From Candidatus Nealsonbacteria bacterium (GTDB lineage Bacteria; Patescibacteriota; Minisyncoccia; Minisyncoccales; RBG-13-42-11): a DNA stretch of 64,000 bases. The position numbers and the translations under genes were made by a program. The stretch is taken from the NCBI GenBank assembly GCA_026396115.1, contig JAPLXL010000002.1, forward strand, positions 5,142-69,141, read 5' to 3'. The notes beneath the pieces were generated by a model. That model was given only the letters and a program-made list of their open reading frames with translations, did no database searches and was not told the origin of the DNA. How positions within the stretch are numbered: the stretch's first letter is position 1; each line of letters starts with the position of its first letter. Positions 3 through 62,003 of this stretch are shown one piece after another.

Positions 3-509
3 AATTACAAAAAAGGACCCGTCTCCGCCAAGGCTTCGTCGGGTACCCGAGCCGCAGCGAAGGGTAAAGAAGAGGATTTATACTCTTCGCCCAAGGAAAA
101 AATTAATGTTAAAGATATAGAGTTATTAGTAAAACCGAAAATTGAAACAGCTATTTTTAAAACAATTGATGCCATTGCTCAAAAAAATAAAAAACAAACT
201 TTATTATTAATTCACCAACATTTAGAAAAAGGCGACAACCCTCTCTATCTTCTTTCGATGATTAATTTCCAATTTAGAAATCTTTTAATGATAAAAGACC
301 TTATTGAAAGACATAGGCCGTACTATTCTATTTTAAAAATGACCCACCTTCATCCCTTTGTTGTTAAAAAAAGCTGCCAACAAGCTAATAAATTTACTCT
401 TCAAGAGTTAAAAAAAATCTACCAGAAAATTTTTCAGGCAGACCTTTCAATTAAAACCGGGAAAACAACGCCGGAAACCGCTTTGGATTTATTGCTTACC
501 GAGATTTAA
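3..509 (+). CDS. holA: DNA polymerase III delta subunit, C-terminal part (5' end outside window)
   Basis: Frame 3 translated by hand is open from nt 3 to TAA 507-509. The C-terminal sequence (FQFRNLLMIKD...IYQKIFQADLSIKTGK) looks like the HolA C-terminal domain. Adjacent convergent rpsT. Carries an in-frame family A repeat at 45-92. Confidence 0.65.
   Translation, partial: NYKKGPVSAKASSGTRAAAKGKEEDLYSSPKEKINVKDIELLVKPKIETAIFKTIDAIAQKNKKQTLLLIHQHLEKGDNPLYLLSMINFQFRNLLMIKDLIERHRPYYSILKMTHLHPFVVKKSCQQANKFTLQELKKIYQKIFQADLSIKTGKTTPETALDLLLTEI
45..92. repeat. Family A hairpin element, type A1, in-frame in holA
   Basis: ACCCGAGCCGCAGCGAAGGGTAAAGAAGAGGATTTATACTCTTCGCCC. Near-identical to 61261-61312 and to the reverse complement of 27967-28013. 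Confidence 0.9.
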
Positions 510-598
510 TTTATGAAAGCGAAGTCGAAGAAAATTCCTTCTTCTTCACCTCAGCTGAAGCTTCGGTAGTTGAAGAAGAGAATAAAATTCTCTTCGCC
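509..598. repeat. Family A composite element (type A3) filling the holA/rpsT spacer
   Basis: Its reverse complement aligns along its length with 61901-61990. Flanked by the 12-bp direct repeat TACCGAGATTTA (497-508 and 599-610). Confidence 0.85.
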
Positions 599-868: not shown

Positions 869-2875
869 TTAATTTCTACCACTTTTAATTTTTTTAATCA
901 AGTCGCGAATTTCAGCCGCTCTTTCAAAATCCAAATTTTTAGCAGCCATTTTCATTTCTTTCTTTAATAATTTAATATCTCGAATTGCCCAAAATTCATA
1001 AGCAATCTCTTTCTTTCTGCCAAAAGGCCACTCCCTTATTTCTTTGATAATAGGTTTTGGAATAATGTTGTGTTTTTTATTGTAATTTTCTTGAATTTTT
1101 TTTCTTCTTGAAACCTCTTCAATTGCCGCCTTTATTGATTTTGTGATTTTATCGGCATACAAAATAACCTGACCTTCGGGGTGGCGAGCTGCCCTTCCCA
1201 TGGTTTGAATTAGGGTTGTTTCTGACCTTAAAAAACCTTCTTTGTCAGCATCTAAAATCGCCACCAAAGCAACTTCCGGCAGATCCAGCCCTTCTCTTAA
1301 AAGATTGATTCCGACAAGAACATCGTATTTGCCTTCCCTTAGATCTTTTAAAATCTGAGGCCTTTCTAAAGTCTTAACTTCTGAATGGAGCCATTGGGTT
1401 TTTATTCCATTTTCGGTCAGATAATCAGAGACTGCTTCAGCCAACCTTTTGCTTAGGGTTAAAACCAAAATCCTTTGCCCCTTTTTTGTCCTTTTTTTAA
1501 TTTCTGCGATTAAATCATTAACCTGATTCTTAATTGGTCTTACTTCAATTGAGGGCTCTAGAAGCCCGGTTGGCCGGATTAATTGTTCAACAATATATTT
1601 TGGTTTACCCTCCCGAGCGGTAGCGAAGGGGGAAGAAGAAGATTTATCTTCTTCGCTCTGAGTTTGTTGAAGGGCTTTCTTCTTTTCTTCTTCAGCCGGC
1701 GTGGCCGAAACATAGACAATTTGATTTGTTTTTTCTTCAAATTCTTTATAGGTTAAAGGCCTATTATCAATGGCTGATGGTAATCTAAAGCCATATTCAA
1801 TTAAGGTTCTCTTTCTGGCTCGGTCCTGGATGGCCATGGCTCGAAGTTGAGGCAGTGCCATATGGGATTCATCAATAAAAACCAAAAAATCATTAGGGTA
1901 GTAATCAATTAAAGTATAAGGAGATTGGCCCGGTCTTCTAAATTCCAAATGTCTGGAATAGTTTTCGATTCCGTGGCAGAAACCAGTTTCTTTTAGCATT
2001 TCCAAGTCGTAATTTGTTCTTTGTTCTAATTTTTGAGCTTCTAATAATTTCCCTACCTTTTTTAATTTTTTCAATTGTTCTCGTAGTTCTAATTTTATAT
2101 TTTCAACAGCTATATTTAACTTTTCCTGAGGAGTTATCCAAAAATGAGCGGGATATAATATGAACGATGGACGATGGACAACGAAAGATGAATTTAAACC
2201 AGCTGGAGAAATTAAAATCTTGTCAATTTCATCGCCGGAAAATTCAATTCTTAAGATTTCTTTTCCGGTAACTAAAAAAATATCAACAATATTTCCCCTT
2301 ACTCTGAAAGTTCCGGGTTTAAAATCAATATCATTTCTTTGGTATTGAAGAGAAGTTAAATGGGAAATAAAATCTTTTCTTTTAATTCGTTGACCGAGTT
2401 TAATTTTCAAAGAAACTTTTTGATAATCTTCGGGCGAACCAATATTGTAAATACAAGAAACCGAGGCAATAATTATAATATCTTTTCTTGTTAGCAAATC
2501 CTGGACTGCCGCGTGCCTTAATCTGTCAATTTCTTCATTTATCTTGGCGTCTTTTTCAATATAAGTGTCGCTTTGGGGAATATAGGCCTCCGGTTGATAG
2601 TAATCGTAATAGCTTACGAAATAGTGAACAGCATTTTCCGGAAAGAATTCTTTGAATTCTTGGTAAGTTTGGGCAGCCAAGGTTTTGTTGTGTGATATCA
2701 AAAGAATTGGTTTTTGTACTTTGGCAATAACATTCGACATCACAAAAGTTTTGCCAGCACCTGTGACTCCTAATAAAACCTGGTGTTTAACTCCAGCTTT
2801 TAAATTTTTCACCAATTTTTCAATTGCCTGGGGCTGATCGCCAGTAGGTTTGAATGGAGAAACAAGTTTAAACAT
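869..2875 (-). CDS. uvrB: Excinuclease ABC subunit B
   Basis: 668 aa with Walker A GVTGAGKT, helicase motifs, IRPTGLLEP and a C-terminal UVR motif (LDFERAAEIRD). In-frame repeat insertion at 1610-1656. Confidence 0.95.
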   Translation of the reverse strand: MFKLVSPFKPTGDQPQAIEKLVKNLKAGVKHQVLLGVTGAGKTFVMSNVIAKVQKPILLISHNKTLAAQTYQEFKEFFPENAVHYFVSYYDYYQPEAYIPQSDTYIEKDAKINEEIDRLRHAAVQDLLTRKDIIIIASVSCIYNIGSPEDYQKVSLKIKLGQRIKRKDFISHLTSLQYQRNDIDFKPGTFRVRGNIVDIFLVTGKEILRIEFSGDEIDKILISPAGLNSSFVVHRPSFILYPAHFWITPQEKLNIAVENIKLELREQLKKLKKVGKLLEAQKLEQRTNYDLEMLKETGFCHGIENYSRHLEFRRPGQSPYTLIDYYPNDFLVFIDESHMALPQLRAMAIQDRARKRTLIEYGFRLPSAIDNRPLTYKEFEEKTNQIVYVSATPAEEEKKKALQQTQSEEDKSSSSPFATAREGKPKYIVEQLIRPTGLLEPSIEVRPIKNQVNDLIAEIKKRTKKGQRILVLTLSKRLAEAVSDYLTENGIKTQWLHSEVKTLERPQILKDLREGKYDVLVGINLLREGLDLPEVALVAILDADKEGFLRSETTLIQTMGRAARHPEGQVILYADKITKSIKAAIEEVSRRKKIQENYNKKHNIIPKPIIKEIREWPFGRKKEIAYEFWAIRDIKLLKKEMKMAAKNLDFERAAEIRDLIKKIKSGRN
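1610..1656. repeat. Family A type A1 element, in-frame in uvrB
   Basis: CCCGAGCGGTAGCGAAGGGGGAAGAAGAAGATTTATCTTCTTCGC. Confidence 0.9.
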
Positions 2876-4171: not shown

Positions 4172-4675
4172 ATGAAACGCTACGAAATTTTAGAGCATAA
4201 AGCTGATTTAAAAATTAAGGTCAAAGGTTCATCAAAAGAAGAACTTTTCCTTAATGCTCTTTTGGGAATGGAGGAAGGATTGAGGCCGGAAACTAAAGAA
4301 ACCAAAGAAGAAATCAAAAGAGAAATTAAAATAAAATCCATTGATTTACCGGCTCTTTTGGTTGATTTTTTGAACGAGGCATTATATCTAATTCAGGTTC
4401 ATAAAGAAATTTATAATAAGATAAAATTTGTTAAATTTTCTGAAAACGAGGGCGAAGAAGATAAATCTTCTTCTTTACTCTTCGCTGCTCGGGTGGGCGA
4501 AGAAAATAAATCTTTTTCTTCCCCCTTCAATACCGCTCGGGAGCTGGAAGGAGAATTAATTGGTCAAAAAGTAGAAAGATTTGGCGAAGACATTAAGGCA
4601 GTTACCTATCACGATTTAGATATCTACCAGAAAGAAGATGGAACCTGGGAGGCAGTTGTTCTTTTCGATATATAA
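4172..4675 (+). CDS. Archease (RtcB activator) carrying two tandem in-frame repeat copies
   Basis: N-terminal YEILEHKADLKIKV and C-terminal IKAVTYHDLDI...WEAVVLFDI are archease-like. Lies directly upstream of rtcB. Confidence 0.8.
   Translation: MKRYEILEHKADLKIKVKGSSKEELFLNALLGMEEGLRPETKETKEEIKREIKIKSIDLPALLVDFLNEALYLIQVHKEIYNKIKFVKFSENEGEEDKSSSLLFAARVGEENKSFSSPFNTARELEGELIGQKVERFGEDIKAVTYHDLDIYQKEDGTWEAVVLFDI
4451..4542. repeat. Two tandem family A type A1 elements, in-frame in the archease gene
   Basis: GGCGAAGAAGATAAATCTTCTTCTTTACTCTTCGCTGCTCGGGT followed by GGGCGAAGAAAATAAATCTTTTTCTTCCCCCTTCAATACCGCTCGGGA. Confidence 0.9.
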
Positions 4676-6252: not shown

Positions 6253-6480
6253 ATGAAGAAAAAACTTCCCAAGAGTATACGTAAATTTATCCGCAAAGAA
6301 AAGGCTCGGATTCGCCGGGAAGTTTTAGATTTGAAAGAACAGGAAAAATTAATTTCAGAATTATATCAAAAAATTGTATGCGAAAAGCGCTCGCTTGGCC
6401 TTTCGGCCTCGCAAAATGCGAATGTGCCCATGCGAATTAAAAATGAAAATAAAAGAGATATTCCAATTAGCAATAAATAA
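6253..6480 (+). CDS. Hypothetical small basic protein (uncertain)
   Basis: ORF-track ORF 6220-6480. Its TTG start lies inside the rtcB terminator hairpin, so the internal ATG at 6253 (MKKKLPKSIRKF) is preferred. The 3' third runs through a GC-rich patch and overlaps the next gene. Confidence 0.3.
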   Translation: MKKKLPKSIRKFIRKEKARIRREVLDLKEQEKLISELYQKIVCEKRSLGLSASQNANVPMRIKNENKRDIPISNK

Positions 6481-13093: not shown

Positions 13094-13171
13094 GGGCGAA
13101 GAGAACTTCATTCTCTTTTTCAGCTATCCGAATGACAATGAAGGGTTAAGAAGAGATTTATTTCTTCGACC
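13094..13171. repeat. Family A composite element between the endoQ-like gene and ispG (supplies the ispG stop)
   Basis: GGGCGAAGAGAACTTCATTCTCTTT ... GGGTTAAGAAGAGATTTATTTCTTCGACC. Confidence 0.8.
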
Positions 13172-14231: not shown

Positions 14232-14232
14232 T

Positions 14233-14289
14233 AACCGAGCTTACATTTATGGAAGCGAAGGTGAAGAAGAGGACGAATTCCTCTTCACC
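14233..14289. repeat. Family A type A2 element between ispH and ispG
   Basis: AACCGAGCTTACATTTATGGAAGCGAAGGTGAAGAAGAGGACGAATTCCTCTTCACC. Confidence 0.9.
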
Positions 14290-19223: not shown

Positions 19224-19282
19224 GTCGAAGAGGACGAAGTCCTCTTCTTCACCTTCGCTTTCGCTGCGCGAAAGCTCGGTAT
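19224..19282. repeat. Family A type A2 variant filling the spacer upstream of polX
   Basis: GTCGAAGAGGACGAAGTCCTCTTCTTCACCTTCGCTTTCGCTGCGCGAAAGCTCGGTAT, followed directly by ATG. Confidence 0.9.
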
Positions 19283-22575: not shown

Positions 22576-22618
22576 ATCTAATTATTAATAGGTAATAATA
22601 AATAATCATTAATTTTTG

Positions 22619-22967
22619 TGGAGGCGGTGGGAATCGGACCCACATCTGAGGCGTTTTCCTAAAATAATTCTACGGGATTAGTCCAGTTTTTTCAAAAAGA
22701 TACAGAATTTAAAACGGACAAAATTTCTATATCTTGAATCCGAATATTTTTCAATAGTTTTTCCGGATTCTGAAAGAACTATTTTATCTCGCAAGATTAT
22801 GACACTCGATTTTACCTAGCGAGAATTAGTAAATCGAATGGCATTAAACGTATGCTAATGCAGGTTGTTTGAACAAGTTGGCACTTATTCTTTTTGTTAG
22901 TTTTTACAAGTTCTAACAACTTGGCCCGCTTATTTTAGTTCACTCCTCATCGAATCCTTTCACCCCC
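22619..22967 (-). ncRNA. ssrA: tmRNA (ssrA)
   Basis: The 5' end GGGGGTGAAAGGATTCGATGAGG pairs with the 3' CGCCTCCA acceptor, including a G3:U pair. T arm is GTGGG-TCCGATT-CCCAC. Candidate tag ORF at 22882-22844 reads ANLFKQPALAYV-stop. Adjacent to smpB. Confidence 0.85.
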
Positions 22968-25780: not shown

Positions 25781-28678
25781 ATGGATAAGCTTTCTGAAAT
25801 AGAAAAAAAAGTATTAAATTTTTGGGAAAGGAACAAAATATTTGAGAAATCAATCAAAGAAAGAAAAGGAAAGCCTTTTTTCAGCTTTTATGACGGTCCC
25901 CCTTTTGCTACTGGTATTCCTCATTACGGCCACATTTTAGCGACGACCATAAAGGACACGGTTTTGCGCTACTGGACGATGAAAGGATATCAGGTCCCCA
26001 GAAGGGTTGGTTGGGACTGCCACGGCCTTCCGGTTGAAAATCTGATAGAAAAAGAATTGGGGATAAAAAGCAAAAGAGAGATTGAAGATCTGGGAATTGA
26101 AAAGTTCAACAAGCTCTGCAGAGATTCGGTCTTCAGATGCGTCAAGGAATTTGAAGTCACCCTAAAGAGAGTGGGCCGATGGGCCGACTACAAAAACTAT
26201 TATGCCACTCTGGACAACGACTATATTGAATCGGTCTGGTGGGTTTTCAGCCAGCTGTGGAAAGAAGGGCTGATCTACAAAGATTACAGAGTTAGTCCCT
26301 ATTGTCCCAGATGCGGTACTCCTCTTTCAAACTTTGAGGTTAATCAAGGATACAAAGACGTTAAGGACAATTCGATTTATGTAAAATTCAGGGTTAAGAG
26401 TTCCCGATTCAAAGGTTCCTATCTTTTGGCCTGGACCACGACTCCCTGGACTCTTCCCGGGAACGTCGCCTTAGCGGTTGACCCCAAAGCCAGCTACCTT
26501 TTGGTAAAAGAAGATGGGGAATCGCTGATTTTGGCTAAAGCCCGACTGTCCGTGCTTAAGGGAAAATATAAGATAATAAAGAAACTTAGGGGAAAAGAAT
26601 TGAAAGGCCTAAGATATGACCCCTTGTTTAACTGTTTAAGCGGAGTCCAAAATATTGAAAATGCTTTCCAAATTCTGCCAGCTTCCTTTGTTTCGACCAA
26701 CGAGGGGACGGGAATTGTCCACACTGCGGTGATGTACGGCGAAGATGACTTTCGCCTGGGCAGAAAGTATAATCTGCCTGCGCATCATACGGTTGACGAA
26801 TCGGGAAAGTTCAAGAAAGAGGTAGAGAAGTGGGCGGGCTGCTTTGTCAAGGACACAGAAGGAGAGATTACTGAGGATTTGAGTAAAAGAGGGCTTTTAT
26901 ACAAAAAAGAGGTTATCTTGCATTCTTATCCTTTTTGCTGGAGGTGCGATACGCCTCTGCTTTACTATGCTCTTAATACTTGGTATATTGGCGTTTCCAA
27001 AATTAAAAAGAACTTAATTGAAAATAACAAGAAGATCCGTTGGGTTCCGTCTCATATTAAAAGCGGAAGGTTTGGCAAATGGTTGAAGACTGCCAGGGAT
27101 TGGGCGTTTTCCAGGAATCGCTTCTGGGGCGCTCCGATTCCAATTTGGCAATGTAGAAAATGCGGAGAGTATAAGTGTATTGGCAGCACAAAAGAACTCG
27201 GCGTTAAATTAAAGGATTTGCATCGTCCGTATATTGATAAGATTGAACTAAAATGTAAGTGCGGTAGTAAAATGAAAAGAGTAGAGGAGGTTTTTGACTG
27301 CTGGTTTGAATCAGGGTCCATGCCCTATGCCCAAAGGCATTATCCTTTTGAAAACAAGAAGCTGGTTGAAAGCACATTTCCGGCCGATTTTATTGCCGAA
27401 GGACTGGACCAGACCAGGGGCTGGTTTTATACTCTCCACGTTCTCTCCTCAGCCCTTACTTTGAAAGATAGGGGGCTGGGAAAAAACAAGCCCGCCTTCA
27501 AAAATTCTATTGTCAACGGGATGATTTTAGATTCCCTGGGAAGAAAGCTAAGTAAAAAATTGAGCAATTATCCCGAAACTGGCGAAGTTTTTGAAAAGTA
27601 CGGGGCAGACTCCTTAAGGTATTTCCTTCTCTCTTCTACTCCGATAGGCGAGGATTATCTTTTCTCGGCCAAGGGAGTTGAAGACGCTTACCGAAAGGTT
27701 ATTTCTACTTTATGGCACAGTTATTCCTTCTTCGTAACCTATAAAGACAAGAACTTTAAGCCCAAGCACAGTTTCAAGGTTAATGATGAATTGAACAAAT
27801 GGATTCTTTCAAGACTCAATGCGACAAACAAAGAGGTCTCCTATTGGATGGATAGATACGAGCTTACCAGGGGATCCAGGCTTTTCACAAAATTCATGGA
27901 CGACCTTTCCAACTGGTATATCAGAAGGTCAAGAAGAAAATTCCAAAGAGCCAATAGTCATCGAGAGGGCGAAGAGGATAAATCCTCTTCTTCCCCCTTC
28001 GCTGCGGATCGGGAAAAAGAAGAAGCGTCGCAGGTCCTTTATCAAAGTCTGATGGTTTTGTGCAAAATGATGGCGCCTTTTACTCCTTTTGTGAGTGAAT
28101 ATATTTATCGAGCTCTAAAAATAAAGAAAGATCCGGAATCGGTCCATCTCTGTAATTATCCCAAACCCTTAAAGAGGCTTATTAATCCTGGACTAGAGAA
28201 GATGATGAAAAAAACAAGAGGGATTGTTGTTCTGGCTTTGGCTGAAAGAGCTAAAACAGGGATTAAGGTTCGTCAGCCGTTAAATAAATTGCGAATTGCG
28301 AATTATGAATTACAGAGAGAGAAAAAATTACTGGAGTTGATCAAGGACGAAGTAAATGTAAAAGAAATTAGTTTTGGCAAAACATTAAAATTGGACACTA
28401 AAATTACGCCAGAGCTTAAAGAAGAAGGCATAATTAGAGAAATTATCCGCCAAATTCAGGAAATGAGAAAGATGGCAGGTTATACACCAAAAGATATGAT
28501 TTCAATTCAATTTGATGGTTCGGAAAAGATAGCAGATATTTTAATAAAAAATAAAAATAAAATTATGGTGGAAACAAAGTCCCGAGATTTAAAATTGGGT
28601 AGGAAGGAGAAATTTAAAATTGAAAAAGAAGTAAAGGTCGACAATGAAAATTTATGGTTAGCAATTTTTAAAATTTAA
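25781..28678 (+). CDS. ileS: Isoleucine--tRNA ligase
   Basis: 965 aa with PFATGIPHYGH (HIGH), KLSKKLSN (KMSKS-like) and a CP1 editing domain. In-frame repeat at 27967-28013. Confidence 0.95.
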   Translation: MDKLSEIEKKVLNFWERNKIFEKSIKERKGKPFFSFYDGPPFATGIPHYGHILATTIKDTVLRYWTMKGYQVPRRVGWDCHGLPVENLIEKELGIKSKREIEDLGIEKFNKLCRDSVFRCVKEFEVTLKRVGRWADYKNYYATLDNDYIESVWWVFSQLWKEGLIYKDYRVSPYCPRCGTPLSNFEVNQGYKDVKDNSIYVKFRVKSSRFKGSYLLAWTTTPWTLPGNVALAVDPKASYLLVKEDGESLILAKARLSVLKGKYKIIKKLRGKELKGLRYDPLFNCLSGVQNIENAFQILPASFVSTNEGTGIVHTAVMYGEDDFRLGRKYNLPAHHTVDESGKFKKEVEKWAGCFVKDTEGEITEDLSKRGLLYKKEVILHSYPFCWRCDTPLLYYALNTWYIGVSKIKKNLIENNKKIRWVPSHIKSGRFGKWLKTARDWAFSRNRFWGAPIPIWQCRKCGEYKCIGSTKELGVKLKDLHRPYIDKIELKCKCGSKMKRVEEVFDCWFESGSMPYAQRHYPFENKKLVESTFPADFIAEGLDQTRGWFYTLHVLSSALTLKDRGLGKNKPAFKNSIVNGMILDSLGRKLSKKLSNYPETGEVFEKYGADSLRYFLLSSTPIGEDYLFSAKGVEDAYRKVISTLWHSYSFFVTYKDKNFKPKHSFKVNDELNKWILSRLNATNKEVSYWMDRYELTRGSRLFTKFMDDLSNWYIRRSRRKFQRANSHREGEEDKSSSSPFAADREKEEASQVLYQSLMVLCKMMAPFTPFVSEYIYRALKIKKDPESVHLCNYPKPLKRLINPGLEKMMKKTRGIVVLALAERAKTGIKVRQPLNKLRIANYELQREKKLLELIKDEVNVKEISFGKTLKLDTKITPELKEEGIIREIIRQIQEMRKMAGYTPKDMISIQFDGSEKIADILIKNKNKIMVETKSRDLKLGRKEKFKIEKEVKVDNENLWLAIFKI
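27967..28013. repeat. Family A type A1 element, in-frame in ileS
   Basis: GGGCGAAGAGGATAAATCCTCTTCTTCCCCCTTCGCTGCGGATCGGG. Confidence 0.92.
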
Positions 28679-29063: not shown

Positions 29064-29840
29064 ATGTTCACCCATTACAGAACCCAAGGTTTTATTTTGA
29101 AAAAAAATGACCGAGGAGAATCCAATCAATTATTGACTATTTATACTAAAGATTTTGGCAAATTGGAAATATTGGGCAGAGCAATCAGAAAAATTTCTTC
29201 AAAATTGAGGTCAGGCGCCGAACTTTTTTATTTATCTGAAATTGAGTTTATTCAGGGCAAAACCCACAAAACCTTGACGGATGCGATTTTAATTAACAAT
29301 TTTAAAAACCTAAGAAAAGATTTAACGAGATTAACTATTACCTACAAAATTTCAGAAGTTTTTGATAGATTAGTAAGTGGTCAGGAGTCCGATAAAAAAC
29401 TCTGGCAATTATTAAACGAAACATTCACTAAATTAAACGATTGTCAATCGTCAATTACCGAAGCTTCAACTGAGGTGAAGAAGAAGGAATCTTCTTCGAC
29501 TGTCGATTGTCAATTGTTATATCATTATTTCCTCTGGAACTTCCTTTCTTTATTGGGTTATCAATCGGGGTTTTATCGTTGTTCTTTGTGTCAAAAGAGA
29601 TTGTTCCCGGAGAAACTTTATTTTAGCGCGAAAGAAGGGGGAATAATTTGCAGCCAGTGTCAAAAAAAAACAAAGTCAGAAACCTTAATTGTTTTTCCCG
29701 ACATAGTCAAAATAATTAGAATTTTATTAAAAAAAGATTGGACCTTTTTAGGAAAGTTAAAAGTTGAAATTAAAGACCTTAATTCGTTAAGAACAATTTC
29801 TAATTATTACCTTTCTGAAGTTTTGGAACAAGTTGAATAA
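29064..29840 (+). CDS. recO: DNA repair protein RecO
   Basis: N-terminal OB-fold pattern (GFILKKNDRGESNQLLTIYTKDFGK) and a C-terminal zinc motif CSLC...CSQC. In-frame repeat at 29448-29502. Confidence 0.85.
   Translation: MFTHYRTQGFILKKNDRGESNQLLTIYTKDFGKLEILGRAIRKISSKLRSGAELFYLSEIEFIQGKTHKTLTDAILINNFKNLRKDLTRLTITYKISEVFDRLVSGQESDKKLWQLLNETFTKLNDCQSSITEASTEVKKKESSSTVDCQLLYHYFLWNFLSLLGYQSGFYRCSLCQKRLFPEKLYFSAKEGGIICSQCQKKTKSETLIVFPDIVKIIRILLKKDWTFLGKLKVEIKDLNSLRTISNYYLSEVLEQVE
29448..29502. repeat. Family A sub-module, in-frame in recO, flanked by a perfect 11-bp direct repeat
   Basis: ...TACCGAAGCTTCAACTGAGGTGAAGAAGAAGGAATCTTCTTCGAC... flanked by CGATTGTCAAT at 29437-29447 and 29503-29513. 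Confidence 0.88.
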
Positions 29841-29858: not shown

Positions 29859-30015
29859 GGCGAAGAGGACTTCGTCCGTCGAGTCAAAGACGAGACGAAA
29901 GAAGAAAAACTTTTCTTCGCACTCTTATTCACCTTCGCTTCCATAGTCGAAAGAGAATTTCATTCTCTTTCTCACCTTCGCTTCCTTCGGAAGCTCGGTA
30001 ATGGAAGCTCGGTAT
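29859..30015. repeat. Left inverted-repeat arm (family A2 with nested insertions)
   Basis: Positions 29860-29945 are the reverse complement of 31706-31791 (85/86 by hand alignment). A 54-nt extra family A module lies at 29946-29999. Confidence 0.9.
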
Positions 30016-31692
30016 ATGAAAAAATTTACTATTTTTGTCATTATTTTAACCGTGATAGTTGGGATTTTTGGTTTTTATTATTATCAAAGGAATATTTACT
30101 CAAAAGATATTTTAAGATTGGAAATTTTGGGCCAAGAAGAGACAGAGTTGCTTCAGGAGATTAAATATATTGTAAAGTATAAGAACAACGGAAACGTCAG
30201 GTTGGAAGAGCCGGAGCTCATTTTTGATTATCCTTCTTATTCTATACCCGCAGACGGAACGTCCTTAAGGGTTATTAAAAAATCGGAAGAATTGGGAGGA
30301 GTTATTTATCCCGGCCAGGAAAAAACTTTTACTTTTACAGCCAGGCTTATGGGCCGAGAGGGAGAAATTAAAGAGGCTCAAGTCACATTATCGTATCGAC
30401 CAAAGAATTTAAAAGCTCGTTATGAATCAAAAACTTCATTTACGACAATAATAAAAAAAGTTCCTCTCAATTTTGATTTTGATTTGTCTGCAAAAATTGA
30501 GTCCGGAAAAGAATTAAAATTTAGGTTAAATTATTTCTCGAATGTAGATTATCCGCTTTCCGGCTTGACAATAATGATTGATTATCCTTCAGGTTTTGAA
30601 TTTATTGATTGTACCCCAAAATCTTTAGAAAAAACTGAATGGGATCTTGAGCTTTTGAATAAAGCTGAAGGAGGAAGAGTCGAAATCTCGGGTAAACTGA
30701 TAGGTGAAGTTGGGGAAGAAAAAGTTTTTCGAGCAAGAATAGGCACTTGGCAAGACGGCGAGTTTATTTTGTTAAGGGAAGCAGCCAGAGGAATAACCAT
30801 TATTAGACCGGCTTTATACATTACTCAGCAGATTAACAACAATCCTAAATTTATAGCCAGTCCCGGCAACTTGCTTCATTATGAAATTTTCTTTAAAAAT
30901 ATTGGTGAAGAATTTTTAAGCGATATGTTTTTGCTGGTCACTTTAACCGGTTCAGCCTTTGATTTTAAGACAGTTCAAGCGCCGGAAGGAGATTTTACTC
31001 CGGGAGACAATTCCATAATTTGGGATTGGAGAAAGGTAAGAGATCTCCAGCTTTTGCCCCCTCAATCAGAGGGCAAGATTGAGTTTTGGGTGAAATTGAA
31101 AGATGAATGGGAAATTAAAGGTTTAGAAGACAAAAATCCTGAAATTCTGAGCACAATTTTTTTAAGCCAAGTTAAAGAAGAATTTGTCAATAAGGTTAAT
31201 TCAAAATTAATTGTTTCGCAAAAAGGATACTTTAGCGATGAAGTTTTTGGAAATGTCGGCCCTTTTCCTCCTAAGATTGGAGAAACCACAACTTATACAA
31301 TTATTTGGCAGGTTAAGAACTATTATAACGAGATGAAAGATGTAAAAGTCAAAGCCACTCTGCCCAAAAATGTAAATTTAACCGGTAAAATTTTCCCCGA
31401 AGCAGAAGTTGACAAAATTACTTTTGATTCGCAATCCCGGGAGATAGTTTGGAATGTTGGCGATTTAATGGTTGGACAAGGAGTTTTAAATCAGGGTCCC
31501 AATATTTCTTTCCAGATCGCTTTTTTGCCTGAAGAAAATCAAAAAGGAGAAACTCCGGAATTAATTAGTCAAGCAAAAATTATTGGTCAAGACCAATGGA
31601 CCGGCGAAATCCTCCAGTCTACAGCTTCTTTCATTGACACAACTCTGCAAGACGACCAAGCCATTGCTCCCGGCTCAGGAGTTGTTCAATAA
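30016..31692 (+). CDS. Membrane-anchored multi-beta-sandwich (CARDB/DUF11-like) surface protein, bracketed by inverted repeats
   Basis: N-terminal TM helix (FTIFVIILTVIVGIFGFYYY) followed by repetitive beta-rich segments. Start set at ATG 30016, since the upstream 5 codons are repeat DNA. Confidence 0.6.
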   Translation: MKKFTIFVIILTVIVGIFGFYYYQRNIYSKDILRLEILGQEETELLQEIKYIVKYKNNGNVRLEEPELIFDYPSYSIPADGTSLRVIKKSEELGGVIYPGQEKTFTFTARLMGREGEIKEAQVTLSYRPKNLKARYESKTSFTTIIKKVPLNFDFDLSAKIESGKELKFRLNYFSNVDYPLSGLTIMIDYPSGFEFIDCTPKSLEKTEWDLELLNKAEGGRVEISGKLIGEVGEEKVFRARIGTWQDGEFILLREAARGITIIRPALYITQQINNNPKFIASPGNLLHYEIFFKNIGEEFLSDMFLLVTLTGSAFDFKTVQAPEGDFTPGDNSIIWDWRKVRDLQLLPPQSEGKIEFWVKLKDEWEIKGLEDKNPEILSTIFLSQVKEEFVNKVNSKLIVSQKGYFSDEVFGNVGPFPPKIGETTTYTIIWQVKNYYNEMKDVKVKATLPKNVNLTGKIFPEAEVDKITFDSQSREIVWNVGDLMVGQGVLNQGPNISFQIAFLPEENQKGETPELISQAKIIGQDQWTGEILQSTASFIDTTLQDDQAIAPGSGVVQ

Positions 31693-31791
31693 CCGAGCTT
31701 CCATTTATGGAAGCGAAGGTGAAGAAGAGTGCGAAGAAAAGTTTTTCTTCTTTCGTCTCGTCTTTGACTCGACGGACGAAGTCCTCTTCGC
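31691..31791. repeat. Right inverted-repeat arm (family A2 with one nested insertion)
   Basis: See the left arm. It starts inside the stop codon of the bracketed gene. Confidence 0.9.
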
Positions 31792-31811
31792 TAAAGGTTA
31801 AAATAAAATCA

Positions 31812-47816: not shown

Positions 47817-47868
47817 ATCTTCGATTCATTTCAATCTTCAATAAATTTTCAATTTATTTAGATAACCA

Positions 47869-51396: not shown

Positions 51397-52316
51397 TTGG
51401 AGTCGATGGGGGAGGGACAAAGACAATATCTGCTTTGGCTAATTTAGAAGGAAAGATTTTGGCTTTTGGAAAATCAGGTTCTTCCAATGTTAGGAAGGTT
51501 GGATTAAAAATAGCTGTTGAAAATATCGCCAAAGCAATTGAAAAAGTATTAAGGAAGACTGAAAAAAGTGGTATCTTATCAACATTTATTGGTTTGGCAG
51601 CGATTCAAGAGGAGCCAAGATTTAAGGAAAAAGTTAAAAAAGCTCTTTTTAAATATAAGGAGATTTCCCCGATATTAAAAGGAAAATTGGAAATTGATTC
51701 AGATCAGATTGTTGCTTTTAGGGCAGGGAGTAGTGAAAGAAATGGGGTTTTATTGATTGCCGGTACAGGATGTGTTGCTCATGGTTGGAGAAAGGGAAAA
51801 GAAGAAAAAAGCAGTGGCTGGGATTGGTTAGCAGATGAAGGTTCTGCTTTTTGGGTTGGCCAAAAGGCATTTCAGGTAGTTTTTAAAGATTTAGATGGGA
51901 GGGGTCAAAAAACTAAAATCAAAGAAATTGCTTTCGGAAAATTTAAAATAAAAAATGAAGAAGAATTGATGGCTAAAGTTTATTCAAAAAATCCAATTGA
52001 AATTATTTCCTATTTTTCAATTTTTTGTGATCTAGCTAGTAAAAGAGGAGATAAAATAGCAAAAAACATTATGAGAGAAGCAGGAAAAGAACTCTCTATT
52101 TCAGCAAAAACAGTAATAAAAAAACTGGGCTTTCAAAAAGTTAAATTCCCTCTGGTTTTAGTTGGAGGTATTTTCCAATCAAAAATTGTTTTAAGAACAG
52201 TAAAAAGAGAGGTTAAAAAATTTGCCCCAAAAACAGAATTTATTCAAGCCAAAAACGAGGCGGTTGTCGGAGCAGTAAAATTAGCCATTGAGCACTCAAG
52301 CGATAGCGCAGAGTAA
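51378..52316 (+). CDS. BadF/BadG/BcrA/BcrD-type ATPase (N-acetylglucosamine kinase-like)
   Basis: [11 protein letters not shown] phosphate-1 motif and LIAGTGC. Confidence 0.7.
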
Positions 52317-52374
52317 AGAAGAAAATTTATTGTGAAAAAATAATGAAAATTTAACCGTTGCGTAGAAATTTTCT

Positions 52375-55048: not shown

Positions 55049-57166
55049 TTATTTTTTTTCAAGTTTATAGCTACATTCCTTGTTTGAACATTTAACCTGT
55101 TCTCTTTTTGTTTGAACTAAAAGCGAACCGCATTTTTGGCATTTTTTTCCGGTGGGTTTGTCCCACAAAGCAAAGTCGCATTTTGGAAACTGGTTGCAGC
55201 CGTAGAAGATTTTTCTTTTTTTGGTTCTTTTTTCAACAATTTCTCCCTTTTTGCATTTGGGGCATTTTATTCCCAAAATATTCTTTTCTAAAGATTCCGT
55301 ATATCTGCATTTTGGAAACTTGGAGCAGGCATAAAATTTGCCGTATTTTCCGAGGCGAATTAACAACGGGGCTCCGCATTTTGGACAAGTTTTTTTTGTC
55401 GGTTTTTCGGTAATGTCTTTTTTGGAAACCTCTTCATATTTTTGTTTTAGATTTTTTTCAAACGGATTGTAAAAATCTTTTATCACCTTGATCCATTCTT
55501 TTTGATTATTGGCAATTTTATCCAGATTTTCTTCCATTTTGGCAGTAAATCCAACGTCAACGATTTCCGGAAAATGAGCCACTAAAAGATCATTAACCAC
55601 CAGACCGATCTCGGTTGGCCGGAATCTTCTTTGTTCATCCTTCTCAATATAGTTTTTTTCTTGAATGTTTGATAAAGTCGGAGCATAGGTTGAGGGTCTG
55701 CCAATTCCGTTTTCTTCCAAGACCTTAATTAAAGTTGCTTCATTGTATCTTGGTGGAGGTTGAGTAAAATGCTGCGAGGGAAGGAGTTTAATTAGTTCCA
55801 AAATCTCTTCCTTCTCCAAAACTGGGAGCTCTTTCTCCTCAAATTTCAAAGGATAAACTTTCAGGAATCCGTCAAACTTGAGAATTTGCCCTGTGGTTCT
55901 AAATGTATATATTTTTGATTTTAGGGCTTCGATATCAACGACAGTCGAGTCGAAGCTCGCCTGTGCCATTTGGCAGGCAATAAATCTTCGCCAGATTAAA
56001 TCATAGAGTTTTATCTGTTGGTTATCTAATTTGAGCTTATCGGGCGTTTTATCAGGATAAGCGGGCCTTATTGCTTCGTGAGCCTCTTGGGCACCCTTGC
56101 TTTTTGTTTTGTATTTTCTTAAAAATCCTGGCCAATAATTTTCACCATAATTTTTAACAATAAATTTTTTCGCAGCAAATAAAGATAAATTGGAGAGATT
56201 TAGAGAATCGGTCCGGTGATACGTGATTTTTCCAGTTTCGTAAAGTTGTTGGGCAATTCGCATTGTTAGTTTTGCCGGAAATTTAAATTTTTGCCAAGCG
56301 GTTTGCTGTAGAGTACTGGTAGTAAATGGCGGTAGAGGATTTCTCTTTATTTCTTTTTTTTCAACATTAATTACTTTATATTCTGCTCCTTCCAAATCTT
56401 TTAAAATTCCATCCGCCTCTTCCTTTGTTTTAATTCCCAATTTCGGAATAGCTTCCCCGTCTCTTTTAACCAAAACCGCTTCGAATTCGTTATTTTTGAT
56501 TTTTGATTTTTGAAAGGCGAAGAGGACTTCGTCCTCTTCTTCACATTCGCTTCCATGAATGGAAGCTCGGTTTTTGAGGAGCGTAGCGACGATACTCCAG
56601 TACTCTTGAGCGATAAAATTTTCAATTTCTCTTTCCCGTTCTACGACAAATCGTACTGCTACCGACTGAACTCGTCCGGCCGATAACCCCCTGGCAACTT
56701 TTTTCCATAAAAATGGAGAAAGCTTGTAACCGACAATTCTATCTAAAATTCTTCTGGCCTGCTGGGCGTTGACTAAATTAATATCAATTTTTCTCGGATT
56801 TTTTAAGGACTCTTTAATGGCTGATTTGGTAATTTCATGGAAAAAAATTCGTTGATATTTTTTATCTTTATTAAGGTTTAGGAGAAAGATTAAGTGGTAG
56901 GCGATTGCTTCTCCCTCCCGGTCTTGGTCGGTTGCCAAAATTACCAATTCTGCTTTTTGAGACTCTTTTTTTAAAGATTCCACATTTTTTTTAGCCCGGG
57001 GGATGATGATGTACTTTGGTTTGAAATTATTTTTCAAATCAATTCCAAATTCATCTTCCGGCAGGTCCCGCATGTGGCCGTAAGAAGACAAAACTTGGTA
57101 TTTTGGGCCTAAAAATTTTGATATTGTTTTAGATTTAGCAGGACTTTCAACGATAACTAATAGCAT
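55049..57166 (-). CDS. topA: DNA topoisomerase I
   Basis: 705 aa with a TOPRIM N-terminus (LVIVESPAKSKTI), catalytic region ITYHRTDS and C-terminal zinc ribbons (CPKCG..., CPKCKKG..., CQKCG...). In-frame repeat at 56516-56571. Confidence 0.95.
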   Translation of the reverse strand: MLLVIVESPAKSKTISKFLGPKYQVLSSYGHMRDLPEDEFGIDLKNNFKPKYIIIPRAKKNVESLKKESQKAELVILATDQDREGEAIAYHLIFLLNLNKDKKYQRIFFHEITKSAIKESLKNPRKIDINLVNAQQARRILDRIVGYKLSPFLWKKVARGLSAGRVQSVAVRFVVEREREIENFIAQEYWSIVATLLKNRASIHGSECEEEDEVLFAFQKSKIKNNEFEAVLVKRDGEAIPKLGIKTKEEADGILKDLEGAEYKVINVEKKEIKRNPLPPFTTSTLQQTAWQKFKFPAKLTMRIAQQLYETGKITYHRTDSLNLSNLSLFAAKKFIVKNYGENYWPGFLRKYKTKSKGAQEAHEAIRPAYPDKTPDKLKLDNQQIKLYDLIWRRFIACQMAQASFDSTVVDIEALKSKIYTFRTTGQILKFDGFLKVYPLKFEEKELPVLEKEEILELIKLLPSQHFTQPPPRYNEATLIKVLEENGIGRPSTYAPTLSNIQEKNYIEKDEQRRFRPTEIGLVVNDLLVAHFPEIVDVGFTAKMEENLDKIANNQKEWIKVIKDFYNPFEKNLKQKYEEVSKKDITEKPTKKTCPKCGAPLLIRLGKYGKFYACSKFPKCRYTESLEKNILGIKCPKCKKGEIVEKRTKKRKIFYGCNQFPKCDFALWDKPTGKKCQKCGSLLVQTKREQVKCSNKECSYKLEKK
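56516..56571. repeat. Family A type A2 element, in-frame in topA
   Basis: GGCGAAGAGGACTTCGTCCTCTTCTTCACATTCGCTTCCATGAATGGAAGCTCGGT. Preceded by (ATTTTTG)x3 at 56491-56513. Confidence 0.92.
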
Positions 57167-58021: not shown

Positions 58022-58140
58022 TTTTTTATCTTATCATTTACTGAGCTTTTATGTAATAAAGGTCAAAGAGATAAATCTCTTTTTCATCTTCGTTTTCGCT
58101 GTGCGAAAACTTGATAAGTGAATAAGAATGAATATTCTTC
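58022..58140. repeat. ~120-bp module upstream of dprA (copy 1)
   Basis: About 114/120 identical (hand alignment) to 61141-61260. Confidence 0.9.
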
Positions 58141-60100
58141 AACCAGTTCGTAATCTTTCCACGGCTTCAGATAGCATTTGACAGTAGAGATTTAACCCCA
58201 CCCTATTTATATTCCCTGATTGCTCTTTTCCCAAAACATTGCCGGCTCCACGGATTTCCAAATCTTTCAAAGCAATTTTATAGCCAGAGCCTAATTCTTC
58301 GGTCTCCTTGAGTGCGGTTAATCTTTCTTTAACCAAAGGAGCGAGCCGTTGGGGATACAAAAAATAAGCAAAGGCTTGAATATGGCTTCTTCCAATTCGA
58401 CCCCGGATTTGGTAGGCCTGAGCTAAACCTAATTTAGTTGAATCGGCGACAACTAAAGTATTAACATTGGGCAGGTCTAATCCATTTTCAATAATTGTTG
58501 TCGCTACCAAAACATCAATTTTTTCTTTTTGGAAATCTTCCATCACTTTTACCAATTCTTTTTCTTTTAATCTTCCGTGAGCGATACCGAACTTCGCCTG
58601 GGGAACCAGTTTTTCTAAGAAATTTTTTACTGTTTCAATTGTTTCTACTCTATTATGCAAATGATATACCTGGCCACCTCGAGAAATTTCATTTTCAATC
58701 GCTTCTTTAATAACTTTTTCATTAAATTGTGAAATAAAAGTTTTTACCGATAATCTTCCCTTCGGCGGAGTTTGAATCAAGCTGATATTTTTTAGAGAGG
58801 ATAAAGCCATATACAAAGTTCTGGGAATGGGAGTGGCAGAAAGTGATAAAACATCCAAAGAAGTTCTTATCTTTTTTAATCTTTCTTTTTGTTTAACTCC
58901 AAATCTTTGTTCGTCATCAATAACCAATAGCCCCAAATTTTTAAATTCAACATCGTTTGATAAAATTCGGTGAGTGCCTACCGCTATGTCAACTTTCCCA
59001 TTTTTTAAATCATTAATTATTTCTCTCTGGTATTTTTTAGATTGCAACCTCGATAACATCGCTATTTTAACTGGTAAATTTTTTAATCGTCCCTTAAAAT
59101 TTTGAAAATGTTGATTAGCCAAAATAGTGGTTGGGCAAATCATCGCCGCTTGATAGCCGGACTTAACCGCCCTTATTATTGTTCTAAGAGCTATTTCAGT
59201 TTTGCCAAAACCAACATCGCCGCAAACAATTCTGTCCATCGGCTCTTCTTTTTCTAAATCTTTTTTGATATCTTCAAGTGTTTCAATTTGGTCAGAGGTT
59301 TCTTCGTATTGGAAAGAAGAAGCTAATTGAAAATCAATTTCATCTTCCGGTAAATATGGAGGACGGGAAGAAATAGTTCTTTTAGCATAAATTTCCAATA
59401 ATTCTTTGGCCGTTTTTTCCGTATCGGTTTTTATTTTTCTTTTTGTTTTCTGCCAAATTAGAGAACCCAATCTTGAGATTTTGGGTTCAATAAATCCAAC
59501 ATATCTTGAAAGTTTTCTTTCCAAGCCAGTTGGTACATATAGTTTGTCGCTGGCAGCGTATTCAAGTTGATAATATTGCTGATTGTCAATTGTTAATCGT
59601 TGATTGTAAATTCCGATGCCGTGGTCAAGATGGACTAAATAGTTTCCGGGCTTCAGTCCTCTTAAATCGGAAAAAAATTTTTGAGATTTTAATTTCTTTT
59701 TTAAAAATTCTTTTGCGGTCTTTTCATTTTTAACTTCGATTGGCAACTTTTCAATGTTTTCAATTCTATTTCCCAAAAACTCAAAACGAACAGCCTGATT
59801 GGAATTTATCGGAAAAACATCAAGAATTCCTCCTCTTTGAGAGAACTCTCCGGGATCTTGAACCCCAAGCATTTTTTCATATCCCATTTCATCTAATTTT
59901 CTTAAAATTTGAGACAAATTAACTTTTTGGTTCTTGGTAAAATATAGAGTATTATCTTCAAAGAAAGATTGGGTCTTTCTTGTTTCCAAGATTTTATTAA
60001 GATTTTCTTCAAACCAAAAAAAGCCCTTTTCTAAAAAGTAGGGGGTGATAGAGCAAATCAGAACTTTATCAATCTGGCTTGACAAATTCATTTTATTCAA
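58139..60100 (-). CDS. mfd: Transcription-repair coupling factor, short form lacking the N-terminal UvrB-homology module
   Basis: CarD/TRCF RNAP-interaction motif (NYLVHLDHGIGIY) and SF2 helicase motifs (GDVGFGKTE, DDEQRFG). The track start is TTG at 60100. The ATG at 60091, preceded by TATAAT plus 8 nt, is an alternative. Confidence 0.8.
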   Translation of the reverse strand: MNKMNLSSQIDKVLICSITPYFLEKGFFWFEENLNKILETRKTQSFFEDNTLYFTKNQKVNLSQILRKLDEMGYEKMLGVQDPGEFSQRGGILDVFPINSNQAVRFEFLGNRIENIEKLPIEVKNEKTAKEFLKKKLKSQKFFSDLRGLKPGNYLVHLDHGIGIYNQRLTIDNQQYYQLEYAASDKLYVPTGLERKLSRYVGFIEPKISRLGSLIWQKTKRKIKTDTEKTAKELLEIYAKRTISSRPPYLPEDEIDFQLASSFQYEETSDQIETLEDIKKDLEKEEPMDRIVCGDVGFGKTEIALRTIIRAVKSGYQAAMICPTTILANQHFQNFKGRLKNLPVKIAMLSRLQSKKYQREIINDLKNGKVDIAVGTHRILSNDVEFKNLGLLVIDDEQRFGVKQKERLKKIRTSLDVLSLSATPIPRTLYMALSSLKNISLIQTPPKGRLSVKTFISQFNEKVIKEAIENEISRGGQVYHLHNRVETIETVKNFLEKLVPQAKFGIAHGRLKEKELVKVMEDFQKEKIDVLVATTIIENGLDLPNVNTLVVADSTKLGLAQAYQIRGRIGRSHIQAFAYFLYPQRLAPLVKERLTALKETEELGSGYKIALKDLEIRGAGNVLGKEQSGNINRVGLNLYCQMLSEAVERLRTG

Positions 60101-61260: not shown

Positions 61261-61312
61261 GCCTACCCGAGCCGCAGCGAAGGGGGAAGAAGAGGATTTA
61301 TCCTCTTCGCCT
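61261..61312. repeat. Family A type A1 element (intergenic reference copy)
   Basis: GCCTACCCGAGCCGCAGCGAAGGGGGAAGAAGAGGATTTATCCTCTTCGCCTAC. Confidence 0.92.
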
Positions 61313-61900: not shown

Positions 61901-62003
61901 GGCGAAGAGGGCTTCACCCTCTTCTTAATCTACCGAAGCTTCAGCTGAGGTGGAGAAGAATGAATGTTCTTCGATTCGCTTTCGCTGCGCGAAAGCTCGA
62001 TAT
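61901..62003. repeat. Family A composite (A3) filling the lepB/hisS spacer
   Basis: GGCGAAGAGGGCTTCACCCTCTTC...CTACCGAAGCTTCAGCTGAGGTG...TTCGCTTTCGCTGCGCGAAAGCTCGATAT, followed directly by ATG. Confidence 0.9.

Follow-up and report, generated by a model that had tools for sequence, protein, structure and literature searches.

A 64,000-nucleotide stretch of DNA from Candidatus Nealsonbacteria (contig JAPLXL010000002.1; the window below means this whole stretch) carries short repeated units that contain hairpins and lie in frame inside genes such as those for IleRS, UvrB and archease. These units are very probably non-autonomous miniature mobile hairpin elements of one modular superfamily, which are translated as loop insertions in unrelated proteins and represent an analogue of the Rickettsia palindromic elements (RPEs). 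Units of this kind were inserted recently and repeatedly in genomes of Nealsonbacteria and other Parcubacteria, which belong to the Candidate Phyla Radiation (CPR).

One group of units, Family A, is present in the window in six full copies of 45-48 nt, located in the genes for IleRS, UvrB, archease (a tandem pair) and HolA and in one spacer. An nhmmer profile built from the copies given in a preliminary description of this DNA recovered all six from the 64-kb window with E-values of 5e-19 to 8e-16, besides weaker relatives, and all the coordinates in that description were confirmed, while its peptides proved exact. The shared similarity also holds statistically, as a 35-nt core with at most three mismatches occurs at four window sites, against 0.00 expected from shuffles; the core of the spacer copy is identical to that of the ileS copy. 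The window is AT-rich, with a GC content of about 0.32-0.43 per 2 kb. The insert reads REGEEDKSSSSPFAADRE in IleRS (residues 729-745), SEEDKSSSSPFATARE in UvrB (residues 406-422), EGEEDKSSSLLFAARVGEENKSFSSPFNTARE in archease and TRAAAKGKEEDLYSSP in HolA. The four gene-forward copies share one reading phase, and the strands of the six copies split 3:3, which is uninformative on replication-strand bias. Pfam confirmed the identity of UvrB, archease, IleRS, RecO and TopA, and the open reading frame (ORF) at the left edge of the window was recognised as holA from the syntenic gene of a sister genome, which encodes DNA_pol3_delta_C. Every intragenic copy of the window keeps the frame and is free of stop codons, as the preliminary description had stated. 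One correction concerns the consensus, which is not open in all six frames: four or five of the six are open in Family A, depending on the subfamily, and three to five across all units.

The recent history of these sites emerges from comparison with relatives. The sister genome (JGI Ga0315294_10000005, 291 kb) is syntenic with the window and 93-95% identical to it in nucleotide sequence across window positions 1-12.8 kb and 18.5-37.8 kb; the loci L053 and L054 are more distant syntenic relatives, with UvrB proteins 77-80% identical to that of the window. In pairwise alignment, the IF3/tmRNA spacer (window 22611/2) contains a Family A unit of 48 nt in the sister alone, between identical, AT-rich flanks. 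Only the sister carries a 54-nt family B unit in uvrB at 2181/2, giving a protein of 686 aa against 668 aa in the window, as well as two spacer composites, one of 114 and one of 107 nt. The window alone has 45 nt in ileS (27958-28002), where the sister keeps a tail-like remnant of 12-14 nt, and two nested units whose flanks are identical in the sister: one of 54 nt (29946-29999) in the loop of another unit's second hairpin, and one of 45 nt (29877-29921) in a head hairpin. The flanks agree between the two genomes at each of these five single-unit differences. The tandem block of 93-96 nt in archease is absent from L053 and L054, whose proteins measure 138 and 135 aa against 167 aa in the window. 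Similarly, the 84-nt block of holA is absent from L054 and L052, and L053 has two different family B units at the same site. The empty uvrB allele of L054 reads GCT CAG/GGT AAA. Presence and absence at orthologous sites thus take the form of 45-, 48- and 54-nt differences from the sister and of empty archease, holA and uvrB sites. The proposal that the elements are inserts is supported by these differences, by copies in both orientations and in spacers, and by conservation at the nucleotide level: they behave as inserted DNA, not as ancestral protein sequence.

The distribution among homologous proteins is correspondingly patchy. The Family A peptide occurs in four of the 120 UvrB homologues listed; one more has a remnant ending in ..ARE, many have the tail-like relic LRQAQGK, and the rest are shorter. 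The IleRS insert is found in none of the 120 closest homologues listed and so far only in the window. About half of the 120 listed CPR UvrB proteins (P0006-P0119) share the motif (A/T)L(R/Q)Q(A/T)(Q/R)GK in the linker that holds the insert of the window, and the DNA of this motif, CTTCGACAAGCTCAGGGTAAA (window 1658-1675), resembles the element tail CTTCGC..GCTCGGGTA. The motif is probably an old solo-tail relic, with the Family A unit placed directly after it. Two homologues hold a different insert, TRAKLGAGLVPHRNKVSGA, at this linker site. As for the sister's extra copy next to tmRNA, it lies 5 nt past the 3' end of a tmRNA gene that Rfam places at window 22616-22967 (130 bits), which we take to recall the insertion of RPEs near or in RNA genes of Rickettsia.

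In order to follow Family A beyond the window, we used an exact 24-nt core, GCGAAGARNATAAATCYTYTTCTT, which fits four of the six window copies. It matches 49 stretches in species-representative genomes, nearly all of them metagenome-assembled genomes (MAGs) of Parcubacteria/Patescibacteria, and among the carriers is a complete 640-kb Nealsonbacteria genome with three exact matches. A metagenome collection yielded at least 120 matching loci, mostly from groundwater and sediment and nearly all CPR. Viral contigs gave no match to the core pattern, and there is consequently no evidence for a phage vector. A search of a collection of 5.8 billion proteins with a triple GEEDK... peptide returned only five small tandem ORFs; single 16-aa matches cannot reach significance, and the search therefore yields no estimate of host diversity. 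In other genomes, all 20 host ORFs tested belong to genuine housekeeping families of Pfam, namely DegV, acyl-CoA synthetase, Trx-FTR, RecG, PNPase, FAD oxidoreductase, signal peptidase I, IOR/POR, MurB, AlaRS, SecA, SBP_bac_5, ComEC, a GDE_C-family glycoside hydrolase, a radical SAM enzyme, 5'-3' exonuclease, CysRS, DegT, a Mur ligase (MurF) and a trypsin-like protease.

Of 128 full copies of Family A from a set of about 170 other CPR loci, 99 (77%) fall within an ORF of 150 aa or longer, compared with 79% of random 50-nt windows drawn from those loci. Family A is therefore not depleted from coding sequence, unlike repetitive extragenic palindromic sequences (REPs) or ordinary MITEs (miniature transposable elements with inverted repeats). 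The reading frames are used unevenly: 47 of the 72 metagenome copies in long ORFs encode GEEDKSSSSPFAAAR (the GEEDK frame), 15 encode TRAAAKGEEEDLSSSP and 10 use other frames. This bias points to a selective filter on the encoded peptide and thereby to translation, for which it is the main, if indirect, argument.

The inserts were also compared with solved structures. They are extra relative to the UvrB, archease, IleRS and TopA homologues: UvrB 398-426 faces only residues 400-406 of 2fdc, archease 83-123 faces residues 82-100 of 4n2p, IleRS has an alignment gap of 11 residues between the RSRDRFWS and MDGEK motifs of 8c9d, and TopA 198-235 faces residues 237-249 of 6ozw, with about 36 unaligned TopA residues against about 11. 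An AlphaFold2 model of UvrB built from 56 close homologues renders residues 403-424 as coil with a pLDDT below 50, within a model that is poor as a whole (mean pLDDT 63) and on which we do not rely. Placement in permissive loops is plausible on these grounds. Of the earlier proposal of surface-loop insertions, the insertion itself is borne out, and the position at the surface is backed only indirectly, by the gaps against solved structures and this one low-confidence model.

The units are conserved as DNA rather than as peptides. Among 51 matches to the pattern, the one stem pair that it left free on both sides was G:C in 30, A:T in 20 and A:C in 1. In a covariation alignment of 117 sequences, 98.4% of the cells of the first hairpin (8 bp) are paired, and the stem pair 12-21 is AU in 59 sequences, GC in 57 and GU in 1, the observed values being reached by none of 500 shuffles. 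Both sides of a second helix (CCC..GGG plus GC..GC) have changed as well. In the GEEDK frame, the covarying positions 12 and 21 are both synonymous third-codon positions. The copies that orthologous genes share, compared for PNPase in three genomes and for AlaRS in two, agree at 87-94% of positions and at 100% of third positions, whereas the flanking 100 codons are 58-74% identical, with third positions at 38-50%. For uvrB, orthologues were found by protein homology for an unbiased comparison. Against L052, the element of the window is 98% identical and the gene 75-76%; against the sister, the element is 86% identical and the gene 97-98%. These opposite contrasts exclude simple vertical neutral descent. 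The data agree with insertion (or conversion) that recurs from a conserved master sequence and with rapid decay thereafter.

The insertion is oriented, sequence-targeted and without target duplication. The 3' flanks of 103 solitary copies define the target: position +5 is G in 70, A in 30, C in 3 and T in none, position +6 is A in 96 of 103, and the three positions after it are enriched in A, G and A, respectively. RA at +5/+6 is found in 92% of copies against 20% at random, and GA in 63% against 6%. The resulting motif, NNNY-RAAGA, is a degenerate image of the first ten bases of the element, RGGC-GAAGA. It is present in empty alleles, as TAATGA in the IF3/tmRNA spacer, AATGGA in a hairpin loop and GGTAAA in uvrB and also at the archease site, and hence belongs to the target. 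Families B, C and D of the window obey the same motif (for example GGT/taatga, atatgaag, aattgacg and ttttgagg). None of the resolved pairs of empty and filled sites (22611/2, 29946-29999, 29877-29921, uvrB and archease) shows a target duplication of 2 nt or more, with a junction ambiguity of 0-3 nt; a TA or AG dinucleotide duplication, suggested by alignment edges, was dropped because the empty alleles show none. A target that resembles the head of the element accounts for tandem arrays and for nesting in hairpins, which contain GAAG, as well as for intergenic units that end 2-4 nt before ATGAA... starts (polX, gcpE, hisS and an ORF at 30016). Of 26 adjacent pairs, 17 have a tandem period of 48 nt, and the remaining periods are mostly multiples of three as well. 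A tail-like motif in the upstream flank of 12 of 116 copies, mostly in tandem arrays, exceeds the 2% expected at random but follows from the head-like target rule downstream and is not a separate signal. The intergenic units that end just before start codons occupy the usual place of the ribosome-binding site, and the context of these starts matches the target motif.

By its sequence architecture, Family A can be regarded as one branch of a modular superfamily. Every unit is composed of a hairpin at its head (GGCGAAGAGGA-loop-TCCTCTTCTTC), the spacer (C)ACC TTCGC, a second hairpin whose length varies and the tail GCTCGG(G)T, with a total of 45-57 nt that is nearly always a multiple of three. 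The second hairpin is truncated in Family A (48 nt) and full in family B (54-57 nt), to which the topA, lytB-end and polX-upstream units belong; families C and D (45 nt) have different middle sections, and the recO unit is a member of D. The modules reported in recO and topA by the preliminary description thus turned out to be in-frame members of related families, and the intergenic copy that it cited as an example is the Family A spacer copy; nested composites are frequent among intergenic units. Altogether the window holds about 23 units (Table 1), the six full Family A copies and about 17 related units of 45-57 nt. Seven are internal and in frame, in six genes; three supply C-terminal codons and the stop of lytB, gcpE and a BadF-type ATPase gene; the other non-internal units are intergenic. 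In these three genes the stop codon (TAA) sits in the hairpin loop, so that elements reshape C-termini as well as internal loops. As single-stranded DNA, units with two hairpins fold far better than shuffles (z about -4), and the fold energy of an isolated 48-nt Family A unit is by itself not exceptional against shuffles.

Table 1. Hairpin units and composites in the window (positions count from the first letter of the window)
Feature	Position	Strand	Remarks
ileS Family A unit, 48 nt	27967..28014	+	IleRS residues 729-745, EGEEDKSSSSPFAADRE; nhmmer 27966-28015, E=4.8e-19
uvrB Family A unit, 48 nt	1610..1657	-	nhmmer 1610-1659; linker between SATP and IRPTGLLEP
archease in-frame pair of Family A units (45 + 48 nt) in tandem	4448..4540	+	nhmmer 4449-4495 and 4493-4543
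holA 84-nt block	15..98	-	reverse Family A unit 45-92 (nhmmer 44-93), tail-to-tail with forward solo tail 15-44
Intergenic Family A unit, 48 nt	61265..61312	-	nhmmer 61264-61313; directly followed by head of another unit, 61216-61263
Decayed Family A remnant	52294..52330	-	nhmmer E=2.5e-4; C-terminal codons and stop of BadF-type ATPase gene
recO family D unit, 45 nt, in frame	29456..29500	-	peptide ITEASTEVKKKESSS; 93% complementary to nested unit 524-568
topA family B two-hairpin unit, 57 nt, in frame	56515..56571	+	reverse to gene; peptide NRASIHGSECEEEDEVLFA; DNA fold z = -3.9
Intergenic composite, convergent holA/rpsT	497..598	-	outer family B with 45-nt family D nested at 524-568
Two degenerate units face to face	13095..13171		A-like unit 13126-13171 (-) gives last codons and stop of gcpE
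Family B unit	14232..14289	-	last 13 codons and stop of lytB; ends 2 nt before gcpE start codon
Family B unit	19224..19281	+	directly upstream of polX start codon; DNA fold z = -4.0
Intergenic composite	29859..30014	+	outer family B; nested family C 29877-29921 (45 nt) and nested family B 29946-29999 (54 nt)
Family B with nested family C	31690..31792	-	upstream of class II aminoacyl-tRNA synthetase gene; arm 31706-31791 99% complementary to 29860-29945
Family B with nested 45-nt family D	61901..62002	+	ends 2 nt before hisS ATG
Degenerate family B-like unit and reversed head	58061..58144	+	within 121-nt repeat upstream of dprA; second copy 61181-61263 upstream of pth

Several other repeats and genes accompany these units. 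A direct repeat of 121 nt, 96% identical between its copies (58020-58140 and 61140-61260), lies directly upstream of dprA and pth, both on the minus strand, and combines an AT-rich, promoter-like stretch with degenerate element modules. An AT-rich hairpin family, AATGAATCTTCGATTCATT, occurs in the spacers 47812-47870 and 63628-63682 and is part of a 107-nt insert specific to the sister at window 33122/3. Two further differences between the genomes fall outside the superfamily: a 56-nt palindrome, CCAGAGCAC...GTGCTCTG, found only in the sister at window 6174/5, and a GC-rich stretch of 57 nt found only in the window (6378-6434), at the start of a NIF3-like ORF. A 40-nt repeat, CGCGGCTCYRCCGCGCCGATGACAATTTCAAGTTTTT, with 93% identity between 53082-53121 and 53741-53780, consists of a GC-rich hairpin followed by a T run and looks like a terminator; its copies flank small ORFs with no Pfam matches (53137-53577 and 53818-54288). 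RNA-repair genes are found at 4172-6162 and 16565-17596, where archease adjoins RtcB and RtcA lies 10 kb away, and L054 has an ORF with a weak LAGLIDADG domain beside rtcB (L054:5204-5767).

We propose that the life cycle of such elements would proceed as follows. Because a unit adds 15-19 stop-free codons, its insertion in a permissive loop of an essential protein would survive, and its translation would yield a short hydrophilic linker, mostly GEEDKSSSSPFAAAR, or TRAAAKGEEEDLSSSP when the opposite strand is read. Whatever inserted in another frame or elsewhere would be purged. A new copy tends to land before or inside an existing one, producing tandems with a period of 48 nt and nested composites, and copies would be removed by decay and by in-frame deletions that leave a solo tail (..ARE, LRQAQGK).

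With regard to the mobilising activity, oriented and targeted insertion, the lack of target duplication and the presence of two hairpins with no terminal inverted repeats favour a trans-acting HUH/Y1 enzyme of the insertion sequence IS200/IS605 type or of the REP-associated tyrosine transposase (RAYT) type. Taken together, these features are characteristic of elements that move by single-strand "peel-and-paste" (IS200/IS605 derivatives, REP/RAYT). We tentatively suggest that such an enzyme may recognise the hairpins and mobilise the units as single-stranded DNA. Y1_Tnp/RAYT-like genes are present in two of about 175 element-bearing loci. A tblastn screen with approximate IS608 TnpA and Escherichia coli RAYT queries gave one borderline match, which led to a Y1_Tnp gene with RAYT-like motifs (L121:7751-8461); it scores 37.7 bits in Pfam, above the cutoff, and 43 bits for NCBIfam REP_Tyr_transpos, below the cutoff of 80. 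The second, in L049, is a fragment of a RAYT-like Y1_Tnp gene. A parental insertion sequence with TnpA/TnpB was not seen in 1.2 Mb of loci, searched with approximate query sequences.

The L121 gene has a repeat of its own. A second, unrelated hairpin repeat, GCAGAGGnCnGGnCCTCTGC, flanks it on both sides (7727-7750 and 8461-8500) and occurs once in frame inside it (7939-7961, ..HRGPSSV..); further sites are L049:135-165, L048:2088 and L001:6140. Judging from the arrangement, this repeat and the L121 Y1_Tnp gene look like a classical REP/RAYT pair in CPR.

Several observations weigh against our interpretation of the units as mobile, translated and DNA-constrained elements. The covariation is partly due to two subfamilies, so that its events are not all independent, although recombinant copies are still paired. 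The loci of the census were picked by the exact 24-nt pattern, which inflates the conservation of the head, and only the uvrB comparison is unbiased. The "empty" ileS of the sister and the UvrB homologue P0003 keep tail-like sequence, and insertion is therefore indistinguishable there from a 45-nt deletion. We infer the translation of the inserts rather than observe it. With its position 3' of the insertion point, at a distance of 4 nt, the motif departs from the textbook IS200/IS605 geometry. The element has no mobilising enzyme linked to it, and none was recognised among the window ORFs scanned with Pfam; both RAYT-like genes are flanked by a different hairpin, GCAGAGG..CCTCTGC, of which only the AGAGG/CCTCT core is common with the element, and for this reason we claim no link between the L121 or L049 genes and the units. 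The view of the preliminary description that no transposase is visible agrees with our scans, in which neither the window ORFs searched with Pfam nor the annotated sister loci gave a transposase domain, several small ORFs having no Pfam match.

A more specific version of mobilisation, which we hold to be somewhat more doubtful than the general suggestion of an HUH/Y1 enzyme, is that the units represent a coding-adapted counterpart of REP/RAYT or IS200/IS605 systems, with units that are multiples of 3 nt and open in three to five of six frames, homing to head-like targets, a Y1/HUH or other enzyme and continuous turnover. Here the NNNY-RAAGA target might be read via guide-like pairing with the TCTTC arm of the element, and a CPR-specific Y1/HUH or other enzyme would mobilise the units. 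Continuous turnover would hold them near-identical across genomes that have diverged by about 25%.

The main alternative to mobilisation by an HUH/Y1 enzyme is spread without any enzyme, through slippage, template switching or unequal recombination via the hairpins and GAAGA microhomology, with loss by the reverse process. We regard this as unlikely. It would agree with a target that resembles the element head, with tandem arrays of strictly 48-nt period, with 45-nt deletions that leave a solo tail (ileS of the sister, UvrB P0003) and with the lack of a transposase among the scanned window ORFs. However, clean insertions also occur at sites that have no copy next to them, as in the IF3/tmRNA spacer, nearly identical copies are found in genomes diverged by about 25%, and the variable 4-nt spacer from the junction to the conserved RA(AGA) is hard to square with priming by a paired 3' end.

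Less probable still is that the units are a selected signal, either a DNA uptake or recombination signal or a structured RNA or DNA site for protein binding, which would be homogenised by gene conversion and lie in genes incidentally. Third-codon positions and the hairpin are conserved where the encoded amino acids vary, DprA and ComEC are encoded in the window and related CPR loci, and the element is not depleted from genes, all of which would suit a signal. A signal would not be expected, however, to decay faster than its host gene, as the uvrB copy of the sister does (86% against 97-98%); many copies are degenerate, and related genomes differ greatly in load, with three exact matches in the 640-kb Nealsonbacteria genome against four in the 64-kb window. 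Known uptake sequences, moreover, measure 9-12 nt and arise by point mutation, not by insertion of 48 nt.

Removal or bypass of the inserts before the mature protein is formed, as a mini-intron, by programmed translational bypass of the kind known from T4 gene 60 or mitochondrial "byp" elements, or by protein splicing, is very improbable. The size of 45-57 nt and the initial hairpin recall the gap of T4 gene 60, which measures 50 nt, but removal would impose no filter on length and frame, and no intragenic copy breaks the frame, has a stop codon or departs from a multiple of 3 nt, with one hydrophilic frame strongly favoured (47 of 72 metagenome copies). Matched take-off and landing codons and intein or intron signatures are lacking, and Rfam at gathering thresholds finds only tmRNA and two tRNAs in the window and nothing on the elements. 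That the inserts are assembly chimeras or an old low-complexity linker kept by descent can practically be dismissed: its only support is that the data come from MAGs, but the same inserts recur at the same sites in independently assembled NCBI, JGI and ENA records, copies lie on both strands and in spacers, and the sites are empty in close relatives.

Among known systems, mobile hairpin elements in proteins come closest in behaviour to the RPEs. RPE-1 to RPE-10 are described as palindromic elements of about 150 bp (Ogata et al., 2000, as summarised in PMC10969869). As far as that summary goes, both are short palindromic repeats of reduced genomes that lie in frame in unrelated housekeeping genes, keep the ORF and encode a recurrent peptide (PMC10969869). 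By the same account, the RPEs are about 150 bp long (PMC10969869); a length of about 100-150 bp and a long palindromic structure would be expected of a member, whereas the units here have a third of the RPE size, at 45, 48, 54 or 57 nt, and consist of an 8-bp hairpin and a second short hairpin. In both cases no linked transposase is known. The hosts differ, Rickettsia on the one hand and CPR/Patescibacteria on the other, and the likeness is one of behaviour, with no sequence relationship shown. Unlike the RPEs, the present units occur in genes as often as random windows do (77% against 79%), are conserved at synonymous sites, follow a target motif and form nests and tandems. Of the RPE-like character proposed in the preliminary description, the in-frame, ORF-preserving behaviour therefore stands, but membership does not, given the size, the phylum and the architecture of two hairpins and a target motif.

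REP/REPIN-RAYT systems share with the units hairpin-forming short repeats, the lack of terminal inverted repeats and target duplications, clustering and stem covariation, as well as RAYT-like Y1_Tnp genes in some element-bearing CPR loci. The definition of REPs requires an extragenic position and a GTAG or CGTC tag (PMC3733652). Membership was rejected, since 77% of the full copies of Family A sit inside ORFs of 150 aa or more. A GTAG/CGTC tag was likewise discarded, as the head is preceded by GAG, NTA and others, and the T of "TAGG" at the IF3/tmRNA insertion belongs to the flank. Miniature elements derived from IS200/IS605 (palindrome-associated transposable elements, PATEs) also have subterminal hairpins, no terminal inverted repeats and no target duplication, and they insert in an oriented manner beside a short motif echoed at one element end. 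They differ in that the present units are much shorter and have their motif 4 nt from the junction, on the tail side, whereas the canonical insertion is directly 3' of a fixed tetra- or pentanucleotide. It is with IS200/IS605-type miniature elements that the units have the most mechanistic features in common, but their target geometry is unusual. A classical MITE was excluded because the ends GGCGAAGAG... and ...GCTCGGGT are not mutual inverted repeats and no target duplication is made.

Other small repeats able to fuse in frame with host ORFs are Coxiella QMITE1 and intragenic ERIC/RU elements (PMC5896051, PMC2759123). Those are classical MITEs that exceed 100 bp, have terminal inverted repeats and target duplications and are mostly intergenic. 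Hairpin DNA in coding sequence of a reduced genome is also known from mitochondria, such as those of Nematomorpha (PMC6649704), as coding palindromes, GC clusters and "byp" elements. These are organellar, have other sequences and sizes, and some are bypassed instead of translated. A full-text literature search gave no description of this element family in CPR, in agreement with the earlier impression that it is undescribed. The phenomenon as such has a precedent; what is new, in ultra-small bacteria, is how widespread and compact it is, its conservation at the level of DNA and the rule that its targets follow.

CPR/Patescibacteria are regarded as extremely streamlined, and a proliferating element that makes up about 2% of the window (estimated from some 23 units, each near 50 nt, in 64 kb) and lies within UvrB, IleRS, TopA, RecO, HolA, archease, PNPase, SecA, AlaRS, MurB and other proteins changes this picture. 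The units provide a second, independent and more compact case of "selfish DNA in proteins" after Rickettsia. Their target motif, the lack of duplication and the hairpin covariation could expose a new system of single-stranded-DNA transposition. In practical terms, the inserts interfere with gene calling in CPR MAGs, with the alignment of their proteins and with phylogenomic markers, and the presence or absence of units offers a ready-made marker at the strain level. If the units do represent a coding-adapted counterpart of REP/RAYT or IS200/IS605 systems, the essential proteins of ultra-small bacteria would be persistently remodelled by an active, mainly intragenic parasite.

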